NCBI GenBank assembly: GCA_016839555.1 | Contig: JAEOUA010000011.1 | Coordinates: 128,001 to 192,000, forward strand | Source: Promethearchaeota archaeon | Lineage (GTDB): Archaea; Asgardarchaeota; Lokiarchaeia; Sigyniarchaeales; SOKP01 | Direction: 5' to 3' | DNA: 64,000 nt | In this document: one piece after another, positions 1 through 62,820 of the stretch | Position numbering within the stretch: position 1 is the stretch's first letter | Layout: each line of letters opens with the position of its first letter | Position numbers and translations under genes: made by a program | Notes under the pieces: model-generated | The model's input: the letters and a program-made list of their open reading frames with translations, nothing else | Databases searched by the model: none | Told to the model about the DNA's origin: nothing

Positions 1-111
1 ACAACAACTAGCACCACAATTCTCGCAGTAATAAGCAATTTCGCGCCTTCTCTGGCAGAAATGACAGACTTGAGGTGTAAGTTTGTGATTATAAGGATAG
101 TTTTCTGACAT
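1..111 (-). CDS. N-terminal fragment of a Cys-rich zinc-finger protein (B-box-like), running off the window edge
   Basis: Not in the ORF track. Manual translation from ATG at 111 gives MSENYPYNHKLTPQVCHFCQRRREIAYYCENCGASCC..., with CxxC-x9-CxxC-x3-CC spacing. Confidence 0.6.
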   Translation of the reverse strand, partial: MSENYPYNHKLTPQVCHFCQRRREIAYYCENCGASCC

Positions 112-287
112 ACTATTTTTAACCCAACTTAAGTTTAGCTTACTTTTAACAAATCGCTTATTAAAAAAAGGTTAAAATTACATTAAAAATTAAAATAATA
201 TTCTAATGTTACCTAAAAAATATTTTAATGAATGCGCAATTATATTAATTAGAAGGATGCATTAAGAATATTCCGAATTTTATCAGA

Positions 288-764
288 ATGGAAAACAAAT
301 TTGGAATGAAAAATTCAACCAATTTTGGTATTATTGTTTTTCTAGATTTAGATAATTTTAAAAATTCTATGAGGGTAAAGGGTTGGACAAGATATTCTCC
401 AAACCCTATTACTGGATATTTAACAAATAAAATTGTGGAATATATTCGAAAATTTAGGGCAATTGATATTTGGGGACTAAATAGAAGAGAAGGAACCGAA
501 GAAGCGATTCTTTTCTTTTATCAAGATCAAGATTTTGTTCAGGATCTTATGAATACCTTACGAGAAGAAATTTTTACAATAGCAAACGAATTAAATGCCC
601 CAACTTCGTTAAGTATTGGAATGTGTAGAGGAGATGTGCCTAAGTTAAAAAAAATTACACGTCATCGCAAAAATGAATTTAAGAAAGATCCCGCGATTTT
701 TTTAGCTTATAAAGCATTGAAAAAGGCAAAAAAGAAAGGCGGAAATTGTATCGTTCAACTATGA
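288..764 (+). CDS. Stand-alone GGDEF-like (nucleotide cyclase palm fold) protein
   Basis: Has FLDLDNFK, REGTEEA at the RxGGEEF position, SLSIG, and C-terminal AYKALKKAKKKGGNCI, which resembles ADxALYxAKxxGRN. Confidence 0.65.
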   Translation: MENKFGMKNSTNFGIIVFLDLDNFKNSMRVKGWTRYSPNPITGYLTNKIVEYIRKFRAIDIWGLNRREGTEEAILFFYQDQDFVQDLMNTLREEIFTIANELNAPTSLSIGMCRGDVPKLKKITRHRKNEFKKDPAIFLAYKALKKAKKKGGNCIVQL

Positions 765-848
765 ATTAATTAGCTTTTTTTATTAAGATTTTAATTATTT
801 ATTCTCTTAAGAAAGCTATAAATTTTATATTTTTAATAAAGTTTTATT

Positions 849-1139
849 TCAAAATTTTTTCAGTCTTTTCTTCATATTTTCTAGTGCTGCTTTACCATAT
901 CTAATTTCAAATTCTCTTTCGTACATTTTGCTACGTACTTCGGCTTCTCGTTTTTGTCTCTCATCCCATTCTTTCCTTAGGCGTTCCGCATTTGCTTGGA
1001 TTTGTTGCGCTTTAAACATTTCTTCTGCTTGTTGTTTAATCTGCCTATCCCACTGCATAGGCGACAGAGAATAGCGTAATCCCCCATTCGGTTTTTTTAG
1101 ATTTTTTTTAAGCATTTCTTCAATTTCTTTTTGGTTCAT
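849..1139 (-). CDS. Hypothetical charged helical protein
   Basis: 96-aa ORF with ATG start, rich in E/K/R/Q, no recognisable motif. Confidence 0.55.
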   Translation of the reverse strand: MNQKEIEEMLKKNLKKPNGGLRYSLSPMQWDRQIKQQAEEMFKAQQIQANAERLRKEWDERQKREAEVRSKMYEREFEIRYGKAALENMKKRLKKF

Positions 1140-1474
1140 TCCTTAAATTCTCTTTTAGATTTTTAATTAATTATTAGAGTATTTAGAAGAAAAATATTAT
1201 TAGCTTATATTTAAAGGTTTTTATCAAAGTATTTCAAAGAACTATATTCATATTATCTATTACTATGTTTTAAGTATATATTATAATAAGAAAGAAATAT
1301 GTACACTTTTTAATTAATTAAAAAATTTTTAAAGAAAAATTCAAAATTAGGGGAAATTTTCACTAATTGTCTAATAATTAGAAGAAAGTAAAAACAAAAA
1401 GAGTATATAGTATTATTTAGATTGAAACGAAGTGAATATCCATTTAGCCTAAGAAATTAATATAGGAATGCAAA

Positions 1475-2050
1475 ATTTTCTTAATAGATATGCATATTCA
1501 TCTAAAAGATAGGTCTCCTTGCTCAATTTTATCAATCGAAGAGTTATATAGATTTCTTTCGCCTCGTTTGGATGGAATTTGTATCACAGATCATTGGGTT
1601 TTACAGGAAATTAAAGGAATAAGTTTCGAGGAAGTTAAAACTTTTTTTAGAGTAGAGCTCACAAGTAGAGAAGGGGATATTCTGGCATATAACTTAAATA
1701 TGATGCCCTCAAAAAATTTAGGAGCAACCCAAGTTATCGATTTTATTCATCGGCAGGGAGGTATAGCAGTTGCGGCTCATCCTTTTTCAAATCGACATAT
1801 TGCATTTTATGATGCGGTTTTTAATTACAATTTTGATGCTATAGAAATTAATGGATCTATTGGAAAAAGTAGCAATGAAAAAGCTAGAAGAGCAGCAAAT
1901 AAAATGGATATCCCTCTAATTGGTGGAAGTGATTCACATTCTAAGACCCAATTGAATACAGTCGCAACAAAATTTAAAAATAAAATTTATTCATTATCAG
2001 ACATCATTAAGGAAATAAAAGATAAAGATTGTAAGATTATTCGAATATAG
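1475..2050 (+). CDS. PHP-domain metal-dependent phosphoesterase (start uncertain)
   Basis: Motifs DMHIH, ITDH, AAHP, IEING and GGSDSH. The Asp of DxHxH lies upstream of the tracked ATG 1490, so the real start is earlier (ATT 1475 or ATA 1484, or ATG 1468 plus a 1-nt shift). Confidence 0.85.
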   Translation: MFLIDMHIHLKDRSPCSILSIEELYRFLSPRLDGICITDHWVLQEIKGISFEEVKTFFRVELTSREGDILAYNLNMMPSKNLGATQVIDFIHRQGGIAVAAHPFSNRHIAFYDAVFNYNFDAIEINGSIGKSSNEKARRAANKMDIPLIGGSDSHSKTQLNTVATKFKNKIYSLSDIIKEIKDKDCKIIRI

Positions 2051-2097
2051 AGAATATTTTCGAAAGGAAATTATAAAATATAGACATAAAAAAGAAT

Positions 2098-2391
2098 CTA
2101 CTTAATTATTTTTATTTTCTGACCTAGAGCTTGCCCAGGAACTCCCTTTTTTTTAAAGTGAGCGCGAACTGCTCCATTATTACCATGAGCTCGTGTTATT
2201 TTTCCTTTTAATTCTCTACCACTTGAAGTATACCATACAACAGTTCTTCCGATGAGCTTATTTGCTTCTTTACGTGAAGTGATACCGGGAAAAACTAATA
2301 TACAGTGTTTTGGATGCACTGTATGGCGCCCTGTTCTATAATTTGCAATAATTCCTTCTTTACCGATTAATTCTAATTTATTCATAGTCAA
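2098..2391 (-). CDS. rpl35ae: 50S ribosomal protein L35Ae (eL33)
   Basis: NYRTGRHTVHPK and GKITRAHGNNGAVRAHF...PGQALG signatures. Confidence 0.95.
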   Translation of the reverse strand: MTMNKLELIGKEGIIANYRTGRHTVHPKHCILVFPGITSRKEANKLIGRTVVWYTSSGRELKGKITRAHGNNGAVRAHFKKKGVPGQALGQKIKIIK

Positions 2392-2482
2392 AATTCCGAT
2401 TTTATAAGAAGTTCTTGTTTTATACTTACCAGATAAAATATTTAAAAAAATAAAAAATTTTAGGTTTTAGATTTAGTGGACT

Positions 2483-3670
2483 CTATGGGATTAATTTAAA
2501 AGCTTTTTGATATGCATCCTTATGAATTTTATACAATTGTTCATTAAATTCCTTTTCAGCTAAATTTTTCTCATCTTGAATAAGATTTACTACTTTTTGG
2601 TAAATTTTAGTTTCAATCGCTTCTCTTTCTTTATCATAATTTTTCTCAGCACTCTTGCCTAAAGATCTAACATATTTAGAATGCCTCAGCCATTCCCAAT
2701 CATTATTTTTCACCTCATAAGGTCCCGGCGCTTCGACCTTTTGGTTATCTATTGGAAAGATATATGGCTTATAGACACTTTTGCAGGGGCGAGTAGTGCC
2801 TGTATACCAATGGATATTTTTTGCATCATCTCTTAATAAAGAGACTTGAGAACCTGTAGATTCGAATCCTCCATGCATGCATATGCTATTAGCTCTATAA
2901 TGATCTCTTAGAAATTCCATCATCATACGATCTGTAATATGACCTTTATTATCATTTAATAATTGTGTTGATCTTCCTAATCGAGAAGAAGGGGAATATG
3001 ATGGTGCAGATCCAGAAAATGTTATAGCAAAATCAAATTGATCATCGTCTTTACAATAGCCTTTTTCAATAGCGTGCTGAATAATTCCTTCTCGTCTTAT
3101 ATCTCCTTTTCCTCTAATAGTCAAACCATTTGAGATGGATCTTACATCTTTAATTTTTTCAGCAATCCACCAGTCATCCGCCGTCTCCAAGACAAAAGCT
3201 TCTTTCTGGTCAGCAATTAGAAAAGAATTATGATAAGTCCATCTTGGGTTATTATAGGCACAACCGCCGCCTTGATGATACTTTTCTAGTAAACTCGTTA
3301 TTGCATTCAAAGCATTTATGGCATTTTCTCCTCTTTCAAGTCCTAATCGGAGTAAATCCATTCCCAATAAACCTTCACTTCGTAGTGGTTCATGAGTATT
3401 TACTGCTTCATTACCAATAACCACTCCATATTCATTACACCCCATTTCCGCACCCCACATCCACCAAGGTTGGCTTATAAGAACTGCTGCAGTTTCACTT
3501 ATTTGAGGAATTGTTATATAGGTACATTGTACTTCTTCATCATTATTATGTTTCATTCGAGGATTATAAGTGATTAATTGAACTTCTTCACTTGGTCTGT
3601 CCGAATTTTTTCCAAAAATAACATTCCCATCAGATGTAGAATTTTTTAAAGCAACTAATGTATCACACAT
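2483..3670 (-). CDS. Secernin / peptidase C69 family (Ntn-hydrolase) dipeptidase
   Basis: N-terminal MCDT nucleophile, FGKNSDRP, WGAEMGCNEYGVVIGNEA and GLLGMDLLRLGLERG. Confidence 0.9.
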   Translation of the reverse strand: MCDTLVALKNSTSDGNVIFGKNSDRPSEEVQLITYNPRMKHNNDEEVQCTYITIPQISETAAVLISQPWWMWGAEMGCNEYGVVIGNEAVNTHEPLRSEGLLGMDLLRLGLERGENAINALNAITSLLEKYHQGGGCAYNNPRWTYHNSFLIADQKEAFVLETADDWWIAEKIKDVRSISNGLTIRGKGDIRREGIIQHAIEKGYCKDDDQFDFAITFSGSAPSYSPSSRLGRSTQLLNDNKGHITDRMMMEFLRDHYRANSICMHGGFESTGSQVSLLRDDAKNIHWYTGTTRPCKSVYKPYIFPIDNQKVEAPGPYEVKNNDWEWLRHSKYVRSLGKSAEKNYDKEREAIETKIYQKVVNLIQDEKNLAEKEFNEQLYKIHKDAYQKAFKLIP

Positions 3671-3882
3671 TTTCTATAACTTTAATTATTTTATTATTTT
3701 AAAAATATTCTATTATAATTTTTAGAAATTAATTACTCTATGATAATACTATTAGATCAACTTTTAATTTCATATAAAGTAAATTAAAATTTGATAAATA
3801 ATATAAAAATACTTTAAAATTAAATTCTGATTTTAATTAATTATAAAAATAATATAAAAACCTTAACTGATATTGATTTGTT

Positions 3883-5688
3883 TTGAGTGATCAAAAAGAA
3901 AACATCTGGATTTTAACATTTGAGTATGACGGAGTAATTAAGTTAGGTGGATTAGGCGAAGTAACGGCGAATCAGTCTAAAAATTTATCAGATGCGTTTA
4001 ATTTTACTGTATTTATTCCTTCCCATGGACAAACGGAAAGATTAACAAAACAGAGAAGTTTTCAAAAAATTTCTTTTATAAGTACGGGAAATGTTAATCT
4101 TGCTAATTTGGGGCTCCCCGAGACAAAAGGAGCTTACGAGATTAGTTATTATAAATTTAATTTCAATGGAATCAATATAATCCTTTTAAATGGAGAAAAT
4201 GACTTTTCAAAAAAATACTTAAATGATAAAAGTATTTATAATCCAGATACTTTCAATGGAAAACTACTTCTATATACTTTAGGAGTAAAATCTTTCATCA
4301 AAAATTTAATAAGTAAAGAAATGAAGGATTTACCAAAAGTAGTACATTTACATGATTATCATGTAGTTCCTCCATTTATAACTATTAAACAAGAATTTAT
4401 TAAGAATAAATTAGATGTTAGCTCAATCATTACAATCCATTTATTAACACGGCCTCGCTTTGAACTCGAATTTATAAAAGCATGCGGAATTGATGATACG
4501 CCTATTACAATTCGGCTCGAAAAGGGCATAAAGCGTATGGATATTAATCAAATCTACCAATTATGTCAAGAAAAAAGTTCGAATGGAGAGATACAGCCTC
4601 CTTTCATGGAGAAAATTGGTGCTTTAATAAGCGATTTAGTAATAACAGTAAGCGAATCATACCTTAAATCGTCTATTATACCGAAGCTGGGAGGAGATTT
4701 AATTCGTTTTAAAAGTGATTTTGTATGGAATGGATGTGATTGGGATTATTACGATATTTATGAAAATGTGATAAACTCTTTTGGAAAAGAAATTCGAGAT
4801 GTCTTAGATATTTCTGAAAGCTCAAGAATATCCAGAAAAGATTTAAAAAAATATTTATTAACCTATAAAATTGGTAATTTAGAAAGAAGTCCATTTATTA
4901 CCTCTGAAAAAGTATTAGATACAATAAATGAAATATCAGATGGCAATATATTTAAAAAAGATGGCACAATCACCCCATTTAAGGACTCTGGACCTCTTGC
5001 TATAGGAACTGGCAGAATTTCCAGGCAAAAAGGTTTTGATACGATTTTTAAAGCAATTCCCAGCATAATTGAAATCATTCCAAATGCGAAATTCTTACTA
5101 TTGATATTACCTACAGAATATAGTTTGAATGAGATAAAAGAATATGCGCAATATGTCAAAAAGTATAGTAGTAATCTTAGAATAGTTTTTGGCATCGCAC
5201 CAAGTATTTTTCATTTAGCACATATTAGTGCAGATGTGTATCTCGCCTTAAGCAGATGGGAGCCCTTCGGAATTATTGTTCTAGAGGCAATGGCATCAAA
5301 ATTACCCGTGATTGCAACGAAGGTTGGAGGGTTTCAAGAAACTATAATAGATTTAAGAGAGGATCCCGATAATGGAACCGGAGTATTATTACAAGAGGAT
5401 AATGTATCTCAATTCTCCAGTAGCGTAATCTCACTATTAAAAAGTGCCAAAATATCGGAAAATACTCAGTTAAATACTCAAAAAAAACTAAATATCATAG
5501 AAGAAATTCCTGATGAGAAAATTAAAAAGTTAGTTAAGAAAGATCCTCAATATTTTAATAGAGTAAGAGAAAATTGTTATATACGGGTAGATAATAATTT
5601 TAGATGGAAAAAAGTATCCCAAAAATTAAAACAATTATACTTTGGTTTAATAGAACTGAATAAAACTAAGTATAATGAAATAGATTAA
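3883..5688 (+). CDS. glgA: Glycogen/starch synthase (GT5)
   Basis: KLGGLGEV (KxGGL), HLHDYH, TIH, TVS, GRISRQKGFD and SRWEPFGIIVLEAMA. Confidence 0.85.
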   Translation: MSDQKENIWILTFEYDGVIKLGGLGEVTANQSKNLSDAFNFTVFIPSHGQTERLTKQRSFQKISFISTGNVNLANLGLPETKGAYEISYYKFNFNGINIILLNGENDFSKKYLNDKSIYNPDTFNGKLLLYTLGVKSFIKNLISKEMKDLPKVVHLHDYHVVPPFITIKQEFIKNKLDVSSIITIHLLTRPRFELEFIKACGIDDTPITIRLEKGIKRMDINQIYQLCQEKSSNGEIQPPFMEKIGALISDLVITVSESYLKSSIIPKLGGDLIRFKSDFVWNGCDWDYYDIYENVINSFGKEIRDVLDISESSRISRKDLKKYLLTYKIGNLERSPFITSEKVLDTINEISDGNIFKKDGTITPFKDSGPLAIGTGRISRQKGFDTIFKAIPSIIEIIPNAKFLLLILPTEYSLNEIKEYAQYVKKYSSNLRIVFGIAPSIFHLAHISADVYLALSRWEPFGIIVLEAMASKLPVIATKVGGFQETIIDLREDPDNGTGVLLQEDNVSQFSSSVISLLKSAKISENTQLNTQKKLNIIEEIPDEKIKKLVKKDPQYFNRVRENCYIRVDNNFRWKKVSQKLKQLYFGLIELNKTKYNEID

Positions 5689-49442: not shown

Positions 49443-49748
49443 TTACATTAGTTCGATTTCGACTAATACTGATTCGGGTATGGAAATCTTCATGATCAAA
49501 TGCATGGATCGTTCATTCGCGATTATCTCAAACAAACGCTTATGGATTCGCATCTCAAATTTCGCCCATGTAGCAGTTCCCTGGCCCGATGGCGCTTTAA
49601 GGATTGGTACTAATAATTTTTTAGTGGGTAATGGGATTGGTCCATGCTTTTTAATCCCTTGAGTTTTACATACGCTCTCTATTTGGTTGCATACGGTCTT
49701 TAAATCTTCTAATTCTGTTGATGATAATCTGATACGGGCCTTTTGCAC
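49443..49748 (-). CDS. rps10: 30S ribosomal protein S10 (uS10)
   Basis: KARIRL, GPIPLPT and GTATW-x2-FEMRIHKRL; GTG start. Confidence 0.95.
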   Translation of the reverse strand: MQKARIRLSSTELEDLKTVCNQIESVCKTQGIKKHGPIPLPTKKLLVPILKAPSGQGTATWAKFEMRIHKRLFEIIANERSMHLIMKISIPESVLVEIELM

Positions 49749-60390: not shown

Positions 60391-61527
60391 TTAGTAACTT
60401 AAGAGAAATTTATTTCCTAAATGCACGTTATTTAAGTATTTCTTAGCAATAATGAGACATCTCATAGCTTGTTCATTAGGGTTAATTCCTAAATCTCTCA
60501 TCTGATAATCGGGATGGAAGACTAATAATGAATAGGGAATATTTTCATCTATGGAGCTAATAAATTGGGCAATTTTTTCAACATCTTTATAAATTGTGTA
60601 TCCAGGCACTAAAAGAGTGCATCCACTTAGCTCTGGCATTTCTTTTTCTCTCGTTCCAAAATATTTTTCTGCTAAGAATTTAAAATTAGAAAGTGTTCGT
60701 TTATTAGTATTACCACATAAAGCATAGTTTAATTTTTCATAAAATGCTTTTAAATCAAATTTAATATTTCCGCCGGTTTTTATTGCGATTTTCATGCATT
60801 CTTCAACCAAATCTCTATTTCCACTTCCATTCCATTCCCAACACACTCGAAATTTTCTTTTTTTTTGGTATTTTATCTTTTTAAGTATCAGATTTGAAAT
60901 CCTTATTGTAAATCTAAGTTGAGGTTCAGGGGTCCCTCCAAAATAACAGATACACGTAATTTTTTCATTATTAGCAATTTCCTCAGCTACATCTTCCGCA
61001 CATACTAGATTTCTTTTTGAAATAATCTTATGAGAGGCATTTTGACAAAATAAACAATCAAAAGAACAACCATACAAAAAGGCGGCATAACTGTAAGTGC
61101 CAAATTCAGGACCTTGATAATTGGAATATTCAGGAAATCCATATTCAGTTCCAGCAGGACAAAACCAAGCATTGCAGCAGTTTGTAGGATTTGAATCGAG
61201 ATATCCATGTAGATAACCTTCTGATTGATTAGGCATAGGTAGCTTTCCTTCCCTATCCTTTTTTATATTTCGCAAGCCACAATAACTTGTATCCTCCTCT
61301 GAAAGCCTACATTCATTTATACATAAATTACAGATAAATTTTAATTCTGATTCGGGGCATTTTGGAGGGGATGGGGGCAATCCTACTTGTTCTCGAACTC
61401 TCGCATGAATGGACATAACATGACTTTTTACTCTCTCCCAATCCTTGGTAAGAATACACTCCCTGCAAATCTTGAGAGTCTGTGAAATTAATTTATCTTT
61501 TTTCCCACAAAATTCACAAGTACCCAT
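60391..61527 (-). CDS. Radical SAM protein (PFL-activase / AmmeMemoRadiSam-like) with N-terminal Cys clusters
   Basis: GCSFDCLFCQN (CxxxCxxC), FGGTP, NG, DLKA, LLVPGY and FHP. The N-terminus has CxxC...CxxC and CxxC-x3-C. Confidence 0.9.
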   Translation of the reverse strand: MGTCEFCGKKDKLISQTLKICRECILTKDWERVKSHVMSIHARVREQVGLPPSPPKCPESELKFICNLCINECRLSEEDTSYCGLRNIKKDREGKLPMPNQSEGYLHGYLDSNPTNCCNAWFCPAGTEYGFPEYSNYQGPEFGTYSYAAFLYGCSFDCLFCQNASHKIISKRNLVCAEDVAEEIANNEKITCICYFGGTPEPQLRFTIRISNLILKKIKYQKKRKFRVCWEWNGSGNRDLVEECMKIAIKTGGNIKFDLKAFYEKLNYALCGNTNKRTLSNFKFLAEKYFGTREKEMPELSGCTLLVPGYTIYKDVEKIAQFISSIDENIPYSLLVFHPDYQMRDLGINPNEQAMRCLIIAKKYLNNVHLGNKFLLSY

Positions 61528-62181
61528 TTATTCAACCTCTTTTTTTAATAATAAAAAGGTTTGCCCTCCTTTTTGCTGAGGATTATCTTTAATAACAAAT
61601 CCAGTAAAATTATTATTGATAAATGAAGTAAGATAAAGTTTTAATTCTTTTTGATTATATGGATAAAATTCAATCACAGCACGTCCTTTTTGCTTTAAAA
61701 TTAAAAATATTTGTCGAGCTGTTTCATCTAATACTTTTCTCATACTTTTTAAATCAGTCTTTTTATATGTTATAAAATTATATGCCGAGATAGAAATAAT
61801 AAAGTCGATTTTTTGAGGTTTTATAGGGAGATTGATTATACTAGCTAAGATGAGTTCCTCTCGAGTTTTATAATTAGATTTATTTCTCTTTTGGGATGCG
61901 ATTATCAACATATCTTTTAAGACATCAATTCCCACTACATTAAATCCGAGATTTAATAATTCATTGGTTGAGAAACTGGTTCCACAACCTAAATCCAATA
62001 TAAGATAATCTGAAAACTCTAATTTTTCATACTCTCCTAATTTTGGATCAAATAAATATTCAACACATCTTAGCGTAGTTGTTCTCTGATTCCTTTCCAT
62101 CCATGTTAAATTATTATATTCAATTGCCTTTTCTCCAGTGTAATCATCTGGAAAACGTGGCAGAGAATGTTTTCGTGTCAT
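61528..62181 (-). CDS. Bud23/WBSCR22-like class I SAM methyltransferase
   Basis: Y-x4-A-x2-Y...Q...TLR, ILDLGCG, IISISA, G-x-AV-x-EFYP and FTG-x4-DNP-x2-K. Likely start is ATG 62181 (the track uses TTG 62196). Confidence 0.75.
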   Translation of the reverse strand: MTRKHSLPRFPDDYTGEKAIEYNNLTWMERNQRTTTLRCVEYLFDPKLGEYEKLEFSDYLILDLGCGTSFSTNELLNLGFNVVGIDVLKDMLIIASQKRNKSNYKTREELILASIINLPIKPQKIDFIISISAYNFITYKKTDLKSMRKVLDETARQIFLILKQKGRAVIEFYPYNQKELKLYLTSFINNNFTGFVIKDNPQQKGGQTFLLLKKEVE

Positions 62182-62430
62182 GCTATAATATTCCAAAACA
62201 ATTTTTAATTTCGTATTCTAAGTAAAAAGCTTTTTATCATTAAACAAAATTATTTAAATAAATTAATTTTTATAAAATTTGTATAGAGAAACAAGTATAT
62301 ATTACAAATATTTCGTGTTATTGCTAATAACAATTCTATAAAATACAAAATTATATAAAGGTAGATTTGTTAAAGATTTTACGTAGAGATTTTGAATTAA
62401 GTTTACATTTTAAAGAGAAATCATTTTTTA

Positions 62431-62820
62431 ATGATCAAAATGGCAGAAAAAGAAAAAGTTATATTAGTTGTTGACGATGAACCTGACATACTAAATCTTA
62501 CTAAGAAATTTTTGGATTTAGGAAATTATAAAACCATTACGTGTAGTAATGGAAAAGAAGCTATGAAAATCATAGCAGAAAAGTATAATGTGATCGATCT
62601 CATTTTATTGGATATTATGATGCCTGGTCGTGATGGATACTCCATTTTAGAGGAAATAAAGACCAATGAAGATTATAAAGATATTATTGTCGTCCTTTTC
62701 ACCGTTAAGAGCTTCAACGAGGACATTCAAAAAGGAAAACGATTAGGAGCTGATTTTTACATTACTAAGCCTTTTTCGGGAAAAGAACTTTTAAAAAAAA
62801 TAGATGAAATATTAGCATAA
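62431..62820 (+). CDS. Single-domain response regulator (CheY-like receiver)
   Basis: VVDDE, LLDIMMP, T and YITKPF. Confidence 0.93.
   Translation: MIKMAEKEKVILVVDDEPDILNLTKKFLDLGNYKTITCSNGKEAMKIIAEKYNVIDLILLDIMMPGRDGYSILEEIKTNEDYKDIIVVLFTVKSFNEDIQKGKRLGADFYITKPFSGKELLKKIDEILA

Follow-up and report, generated by a model that had tools for sequence, protein, structure and literature searches.

A divergent Bud23-family methyltransferase paralogue paired with a radical SAM gene in a Loki-type Asgard archaeon

In yeast and humans, Bud23 (BUD23/WBSCR22 in humans) acts with Trm112 (TRMT112) as the 18S ribosomal RNA (rRNA) (guanine1575/1639-N7)-methyltransferase and is a biogenesis factor of the 40S subunit. 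Here we analyse a stretch of 64,000 nucleotides from a Promethearchaeota archaeon (assembly GCA_016839555.1, contig JAEOUA010000011.1, positions 128,001 to 192,000), henceforth the window, in which a gene for a Bud23-like class I S-adenosylmethionine (SAM) methyltransferase directly precedes a gene for a radical SAM enzyme. Reviews state that archaea contain no Bud23 orthologue (PMC5372719, PMC6144793), and our literature search found no paper that names Bud23 together with Asgard or Lokiarchaeota. Ebersberger et al. called BUD23 'orthologs' in all taxa (PMC3919561); these have no second domain and are probably generic methyltransferases. BUD23 also figures among the factors traced by Birikmen et al. 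in their supplement (PMC8481954). The genome that harbours the window encodes two Bud23-family proteins, and sequence comparison places the window gene, denoted B-type, as the more divergent one. We regard it as probable that this gene is a functional, divergent paralogue of Bud23 that depends on Trm112, acts on the translation apparatus at a target differing from that of Bud23 proper, and has entered a derived operon with the radical SAM gene in a single family. The two genes are:

61528..62181, minus strand: Bud23-family class I SAM methyltransferase, B-type (P0001), 217 residues, start MTRK
60391..61527, minus strand: radical SAM enzyme of the pyruvate formate-lyase (PFL) activase type (P0002), 378 residues

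The window methyltransferase has a class I SAM methyltransferase core, as seen from Pfam matches to Methyltransf_31, Methyltransf_11 and Methyltransf_25, and its motif I reads LILDLGCGTS, with L62, D63, G65, C66 and G67 conserved in an alignment of 88 family members. The likeness to Bud23 is far beyond chance and extends beyond the SAM-binding site. Bud23/WBSCR22 chains fill the top five places in a search of all PDB sequences (E 5.6e-12 to 9e-10), ahead of a generic methyltransferase at E 1.4e-6. A profile from 28 eukaryotic Bud23 sequences scores the protein at 119.1 bits (E 1e-36), and a search of 1.84 billion representative proteins ranks relatives of about 200 residues first, followed by proteins of 250-360 residues with the C-terminal motif of eukaryotic Bud23 in their tails. 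When the AlphaFold model (predicted local distance difference test, pLDDT, 90.4) was submitted to Foldseek, the eight best PDB matches were again all Bud23 (E 1.5e-17 to 5e-15; template-modelling (TM) score by target 0.71-0.90), and archaeal Trm11 ranked after the Bud23 chains, with a TM of 0.54 by query. The model has the class I fold together with the N-terminal helices and C-terminal strands typical of the family, as in the yeast and human structures (PDB 4QTT, 4QTU, 6G4W and 7WTS), and superimposes on the yeast Bud23 chains and on human 6G4W with a TM by target of 0.86-0.90 over about 200 columns. In an IQ-TREE phylogeny, eukaryotic Bud23 and the Bud23-like proteins, including the window gene, split from generic methyltransferases with support of 100/98. 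In IMG, some archaeal members bear the label 18S rRNA (guanine1575-N7)-methyltransferase. The original prediction of a match reaching past the SAM site to N- and C-terminal motifs is borne out, family membership holding over the entire length by sequence, fold and tree alike, and so is its remark that the basic C-terminal extension of the eukaryotic proteins is absent: unlike eukaryotic Bud23, of which the representative P0290 carries WBS_methylT (PF12589) at 74.9 bits, the window protein gave generic class I methyltransferase domains only, with no PF12589 tail found by Pfam or NCBIfam.

A genome-wide search recovered a second family member outside the window, denoted A-type, which lies next to a ribosomal-protein gene:

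Contig C12:227830-228462 (locus L002, 2328-2963), minus strand: A-type Bud23-like gene P0241, 211 residues
Locus L002, 3096-3395: gene for ribosomal protein eS25, head-to-head with the A-type gene across a 132-bp spacer

P0241 is 30% identical to the window protein and resembles eukaryotic Bud23 more closely. Its match to yeast Bud23 spans the full length at 86.7 bits (E 1.5e-23), against 49 bits for the window protein, and the eukaryotic profile gives it 139.8 bits, as opposed to the 119.1 of the window protein. In the reciprocal direction, eukaryotic P0290 searched against the genome retrieves the C12 copy at 80.8 bits, the window gene at 62.1 and generic methyltransferases at 23. No PF12589 tail was found in P0241 by Pfam; the remaining archaeal family members, of 184-241 residues, are too short to leave room for one. 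The window protein and the A-type forms (P0241, those of Odin-like genomes and those of Micrarchaeota and Aenigmarchaeota) belong to one family of tail-less proteins and share a length of about 190-220 residues. The clades differ in a signature of three residues: the Gln and Trp of SISA(I/L)QW and the Gln of QFYP are each 100% fixed in the eukaryotic sequences and 98-100% fixed on the A side of the 88-member alignment, whereas every B-clade sequence (100%) has Asn, Phe and Glu at these positions (N135 and F136 in SISAYNF and E171 in EFYP of the window protein). Across the window's family (f1), the B-type copy has been kept at 46-82% identity, which points to purifying selection. The window gene had originally been proposed as the archaeal Bud23 orthologue; its place in the family stands, but the role of closest counterpart does not, since the C12 paralogue is the reciprocal best hit of eukaryotic Bud23. 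On these comparisons, the A-type copy is the likelier Bud23 counterpart of this genome.

We counted family members with a profile of 40 A-side sequences, the scores of which are bimodal, with A-type proteins at 205-256 bits and B-type proteins at 115-165; generic methyltransferases reach 87 bits at most and match over the core only. In a phylum-wide sample of 151 genomes, we found full-length members in 25/25 genomes of f1, 2/2 of the sister family f2, 3/4 of the Odin-like family f3 and in the single genome of f18, and this profile found none in the 118 genomes of 23 other Asgard families. Within the class, 81 genomes gave members in 64/66 of f1, 7/7 of f2 and 2/3 of f29. Outside the Asgard archaea, A-side members are found in Micrarchaeota and Aenigmarchaeota (DPANN). 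A separate locus search from a 12-sequence alignment with the pattern SISALQW retrieves A-type genes only and is uninformative on the range of the B-type.

Relationships among the archaeal clades and the eukaryotes were assessed in a tree of 64 rows (IQ-TREE, LG+C20, posterior mean site frequency (PMSF) approximation). Eukaryotes (100/99), the B group (99/91), the Loki A-type with Micrarchaeota (94/95) and the Odin proteins with an Aenigmarchaeota-containing group (94/79) each form a clade. FastTree and a quick IQ-TREE run had put the eukaryotes on the A side; we set this placement aside, as the careful tree is polytomous and the approximately unbiased (AU) test keeps the alternative. Family membership and two archaeal subfamilies are established, and the tree singles out no archaeal clade as sister to the eukaryotes. 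The pre-eukaryotic origin of the Bud23 step put forward in the original prediction is a possible reading. Members occur in some Asgard lineages and in DPANN, and the tree is polytomous; vertical descent from an Asgard ancestor does not follow from these data.

Several observations weigh against treating the B-type as the copy set apart from Bud23 proper. The four main clades join as a polytomy, so that the A-type is not placed closer to eukaryotes than the B-type. The AU test retained a tree forcing eukaryotes and the B group together (p-AU 0.79), and that tree even outscored the one from the quick free search. One genome, the f18 representative G025, has a single B-like copy with the B-type signature, possibly its sole Bud23, and the host's own A-type P0241 has His rather than Gln at the third fixed position, with the other two kept. 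Moreover, a pocket-lining role of the three residues is putative and comes from general knowledge of class I methyltransferases; N135, F136 and E171 lie in motifs IV and VI, which we take to border the substrate pocket. The AU result and the B-only genome, together with the full-length Bud23 fold, the sequence likeness of the window protein and the presence of a Trm112 gene in the genome, would suit the original prediction that the window gene is the archaeal Bud23 orthologue and, with Trm112, makes N7-methylguanosine at the equivalent of yeast G1575 in 16S rRNA. We nevertheless consider this quite unlikely, given that the same genome holds a more Bud23-like paralogue that wins the reciprocal search, that throughout the B clade other residues stand at the three positions that are invariant in eukaryotic Bud23, and that eight genomes of the window's family yielded no B-type copy while the A-type is nearly universal there. 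In the host assembly itself, only positions 4-658 of the 16S rRNA gene are present, at a contig end (C5:603237-603905), and the 3' domain with the Bud23 target guanine falls outside the assembly; a search of the host genome with the target-guanine pattern gave one chance-level match, which is not rRNA.

Both subfamilies recur beside genes for proteins of the small-subunit head. An eS25 gene stands head-to-head with the A-type gene in the host genome, in another genus of f1 and in f2; in an Odin-like genome of 1.4 Mb, uS7 takes this place. In 7/7 sampled f2 genomes (G094, G162, G178, G186, G201, G202 and G089), an A-type gene is followed in tandem by a B-type gene. One of these loci (L007 of G094, 96-4087) was read through and comprises a divergent eS25 gene, the A-type gene, the B-type gene, an M28-like peptidase gene and uS10; the tandem seems to mark the place of the duplication, or else its oldest arrangement preserved. 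In two f1 genomes, uS10 follows the B-type gene directly, and another genus has the order B-type, radical SAM, hydrolase, uS10. In these related genomes uS10 is thus directly or closely downstream, compared with 10.6 kb in the window:

49443..49748, minus strand: uS10 gene, same strand as the pair and about 10.6 kb downstream of it

These recurring neighbours suggest that A-type and B-type alike have a ribosomal role. A shift of the B-type after duplication to a non-ribosomal substrate, either a small molecule or a protein, with the ribosomal neighbours as leftovers of the tandem origin, would be compatible with the changed residues of the putative pocket, with the distance to uS10 in the host and with further members of the wider B group that have no ribosomal neighbours. 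Yet the protein retains the complete Bud23 fold, with its N-terminal helices and C-terminal strands, and linkage to uS10 recurs in three arrangements, so that we hold such a shift to be very unlikely.

The original prediction had suggested looking for Trm112; the genome has a single gene, P0242, on contig C5 (locus L001, 1375-1998, minus strand; PF03966 at 42.5 bits). The encoded protein of 207 residues is much longer than archaeal Trm112 of 60-80 residues and longer than the human TRMT112 chains of roughly 125 residues matched in the PDB search. Its zinc knuckle is split into two halves ~120 residues apart. Taken together, we favour a reading in which the B-type protein, a tail-less class I SAM methyltransferase with a full Bud23 fold, probably works with this Trm112. 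Its substrate probably belongs to the translation apparatus and is most likely small-subunit rRNA; in site or chemistry it probably departs from Bud23 proper. The role of N7-methylating the P-site guanine (G1575 in yeast) would better fit the conservative A-type on contig C12 beside eS25. The radical SAM pairing, in this reading, is a derived operon of one Loki-type family.

The locus itself agrees with the original description. All methyltransferase peptide motifs quoted there are found in the open reading frame 61528-62181, and the abutting stop and start codons, as well as a Shine-Dalgarno-like sequence inside the 3' end of the methyltransferase gene, can be read directly:

61525-61530, minus strand: junction of the methyltransferase stop (TAA, 61530-61528) and the radical SAM start (ATG, 61527-61525), 0-bp gap
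61535..61539, minus strand: Shine-Dalgarno-like GAGGT, 7 nt 5' of the radical SAM ATG, within the coding end of the methyltransferase
62431..62820, plus strand: single-domain response regulator gene, divergent neighbour

The open reading frame listing would allow an upstream extension of the methyltransferase to a TTG at 62196; we prefer the ATG start, because relatives of 217 residues cover 100% of the ATG-started protein. With the divergent response regulator upstream and a convergent gene of 827 residues closing the pair downstream, the methyltransferase and radical SAM genes form a two-gene unit. The sequencing runs listed for the stretch comprise DNA from marine sediment and marsh, with none of RNA. 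Two related genomes (L096 and L097) have the same response-regulator neighbour at their B-type gene.

The tight coupling had led to the proposal of a two-enzyme RNA-modification module. A true two-step system, in which methyltransferase and radical SAM enzyme share one substrate, RNA or protein, would account for the 0-bp gap in the window and the gaps of mostly 9-36 bp in other f1 genomes, for the position of the radical SAM gene directly downstream of the B-type gene and on the same strand in 50/51 f1 genomes that have it, and for the placement of the pair just upstream of uS10 in one genus. Yet the radical SAM family is present in 115/151 genomes of the phylum, without this methyltransferase or any conserved partner: in every other family the radical SAM gene occurs with no B-type gene, and 21 loci from other Asgard families, 20 of which yielded the gene, showed no recurring methyltransferase partner. 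Conversely, six f1 genomes have the B-type without a radical SAM match, and f2 has it in 7/7, of which 6/7 lack a radical SAM match and 1/7 carries that gene on another contig; in eight f1 genomes, neither gene was matched. The A-type gene, which adjoins eS25 or uS7, is never coupled to a radical SAM gene. The nearest structural relative of the radical SAM enzyme, PFL activase, acts on protein and not on RNA. Within one family the two genes are genuinely coupled and the coupling is conserved, yet the arrangement is derived, and neither gene depends on its partner. On the terms of the original prediction, linkage of such narrow range refutes the module only, and we regard a shared-substrate system as unlikely. 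Highly doubtful is also its most specific form, that is, an as yet undescribed two-step modification of the small-subunit head (rRNA or a head protein) in Loki-type Asgard archaea by the B-type paralogue and a multi-cluster radical SAM enzyme akin to PFL activase. The spacing between the two genes is about 700 bp in one genome (L098, G138:C81), compared with 9-36 bp in most.

The model of P0002 (pLDDT 86.9) has PFL activase (PDB 3C8F) as its closest fold, with a Foldseek E of 4.9e-11 and a TM by target of 0.78; RlmN, NifB and others rank below. With PFL activase and the AmmeMemoRadiSam enzyme it shares the radical SAM motif CX3CX2C, here C154-x3-C158-x2-C161, and a partial triosephosphate isomerase (TIM) barrel. 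Unlike either, it is extended at the N terminus by about 140 residues, among them eight invariant Cys. The invariant Cys of P0002 beyond the radical SAM motif are those of an N-terminal CxxC...CxxC (C4, C7, C21 and C24), C66-x2-C69-x3-C73-x9-C83, C117, C192, C194 and C229. Its scores fall far below the curated cut-offs of both named families, at 35.1 bits for the PFL-activase model TIGR02493 (cut-off 231.75) and 40.7 bits for AmmeMemoRadiSam TIGR04337 (cut-off 220). Two AmmeMemoRadiSam-type genes are located elsewhere in the genome, a true member at 300 bits on contig C3 and one with an in-frame TAA on contig C9. The genome also encodes five glycyl-radical enzymes of 800-1000 residues (contigs C1, C5, C6, C7 and C10), two of them beside activase-like genes; none of the five adjoins P0002, as all are on other contigs. 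By language-model likeness, the radical SAM family extends to Bathyarchaeota and Nitrososphaerota. Among the 20 loci from other Asgard families, a RimI/Ard1-like N-acetyltransferase gene lies just upstream of the radical SAM gene in four, on the same strand in three, and a thermosome-subunit gene directly downstream in four, with small GTPases nearby (loci with one or the other recurrence: L004, L101, L104, L114 and L102, L116); this recurrence is a weak hint of a protein-directed role.

One archaeal genome thus holds two tail-less Bud23-family members and a Trm112. The appealing radical SAM module appears here as a lineage-specific operon rather than a conserved system, and the value of the window gene is narrower, lying in the definition of a sister subfamily whose signature has changed. 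With both copies and a Trm112 present, the archaeal translation apparatus is predicted to bear one unmapped methyl mark at least, perhaps two, and the genome would offer a concrete test of whether a step of eukaryotic 40S biogenesis predates the eukaryotes.

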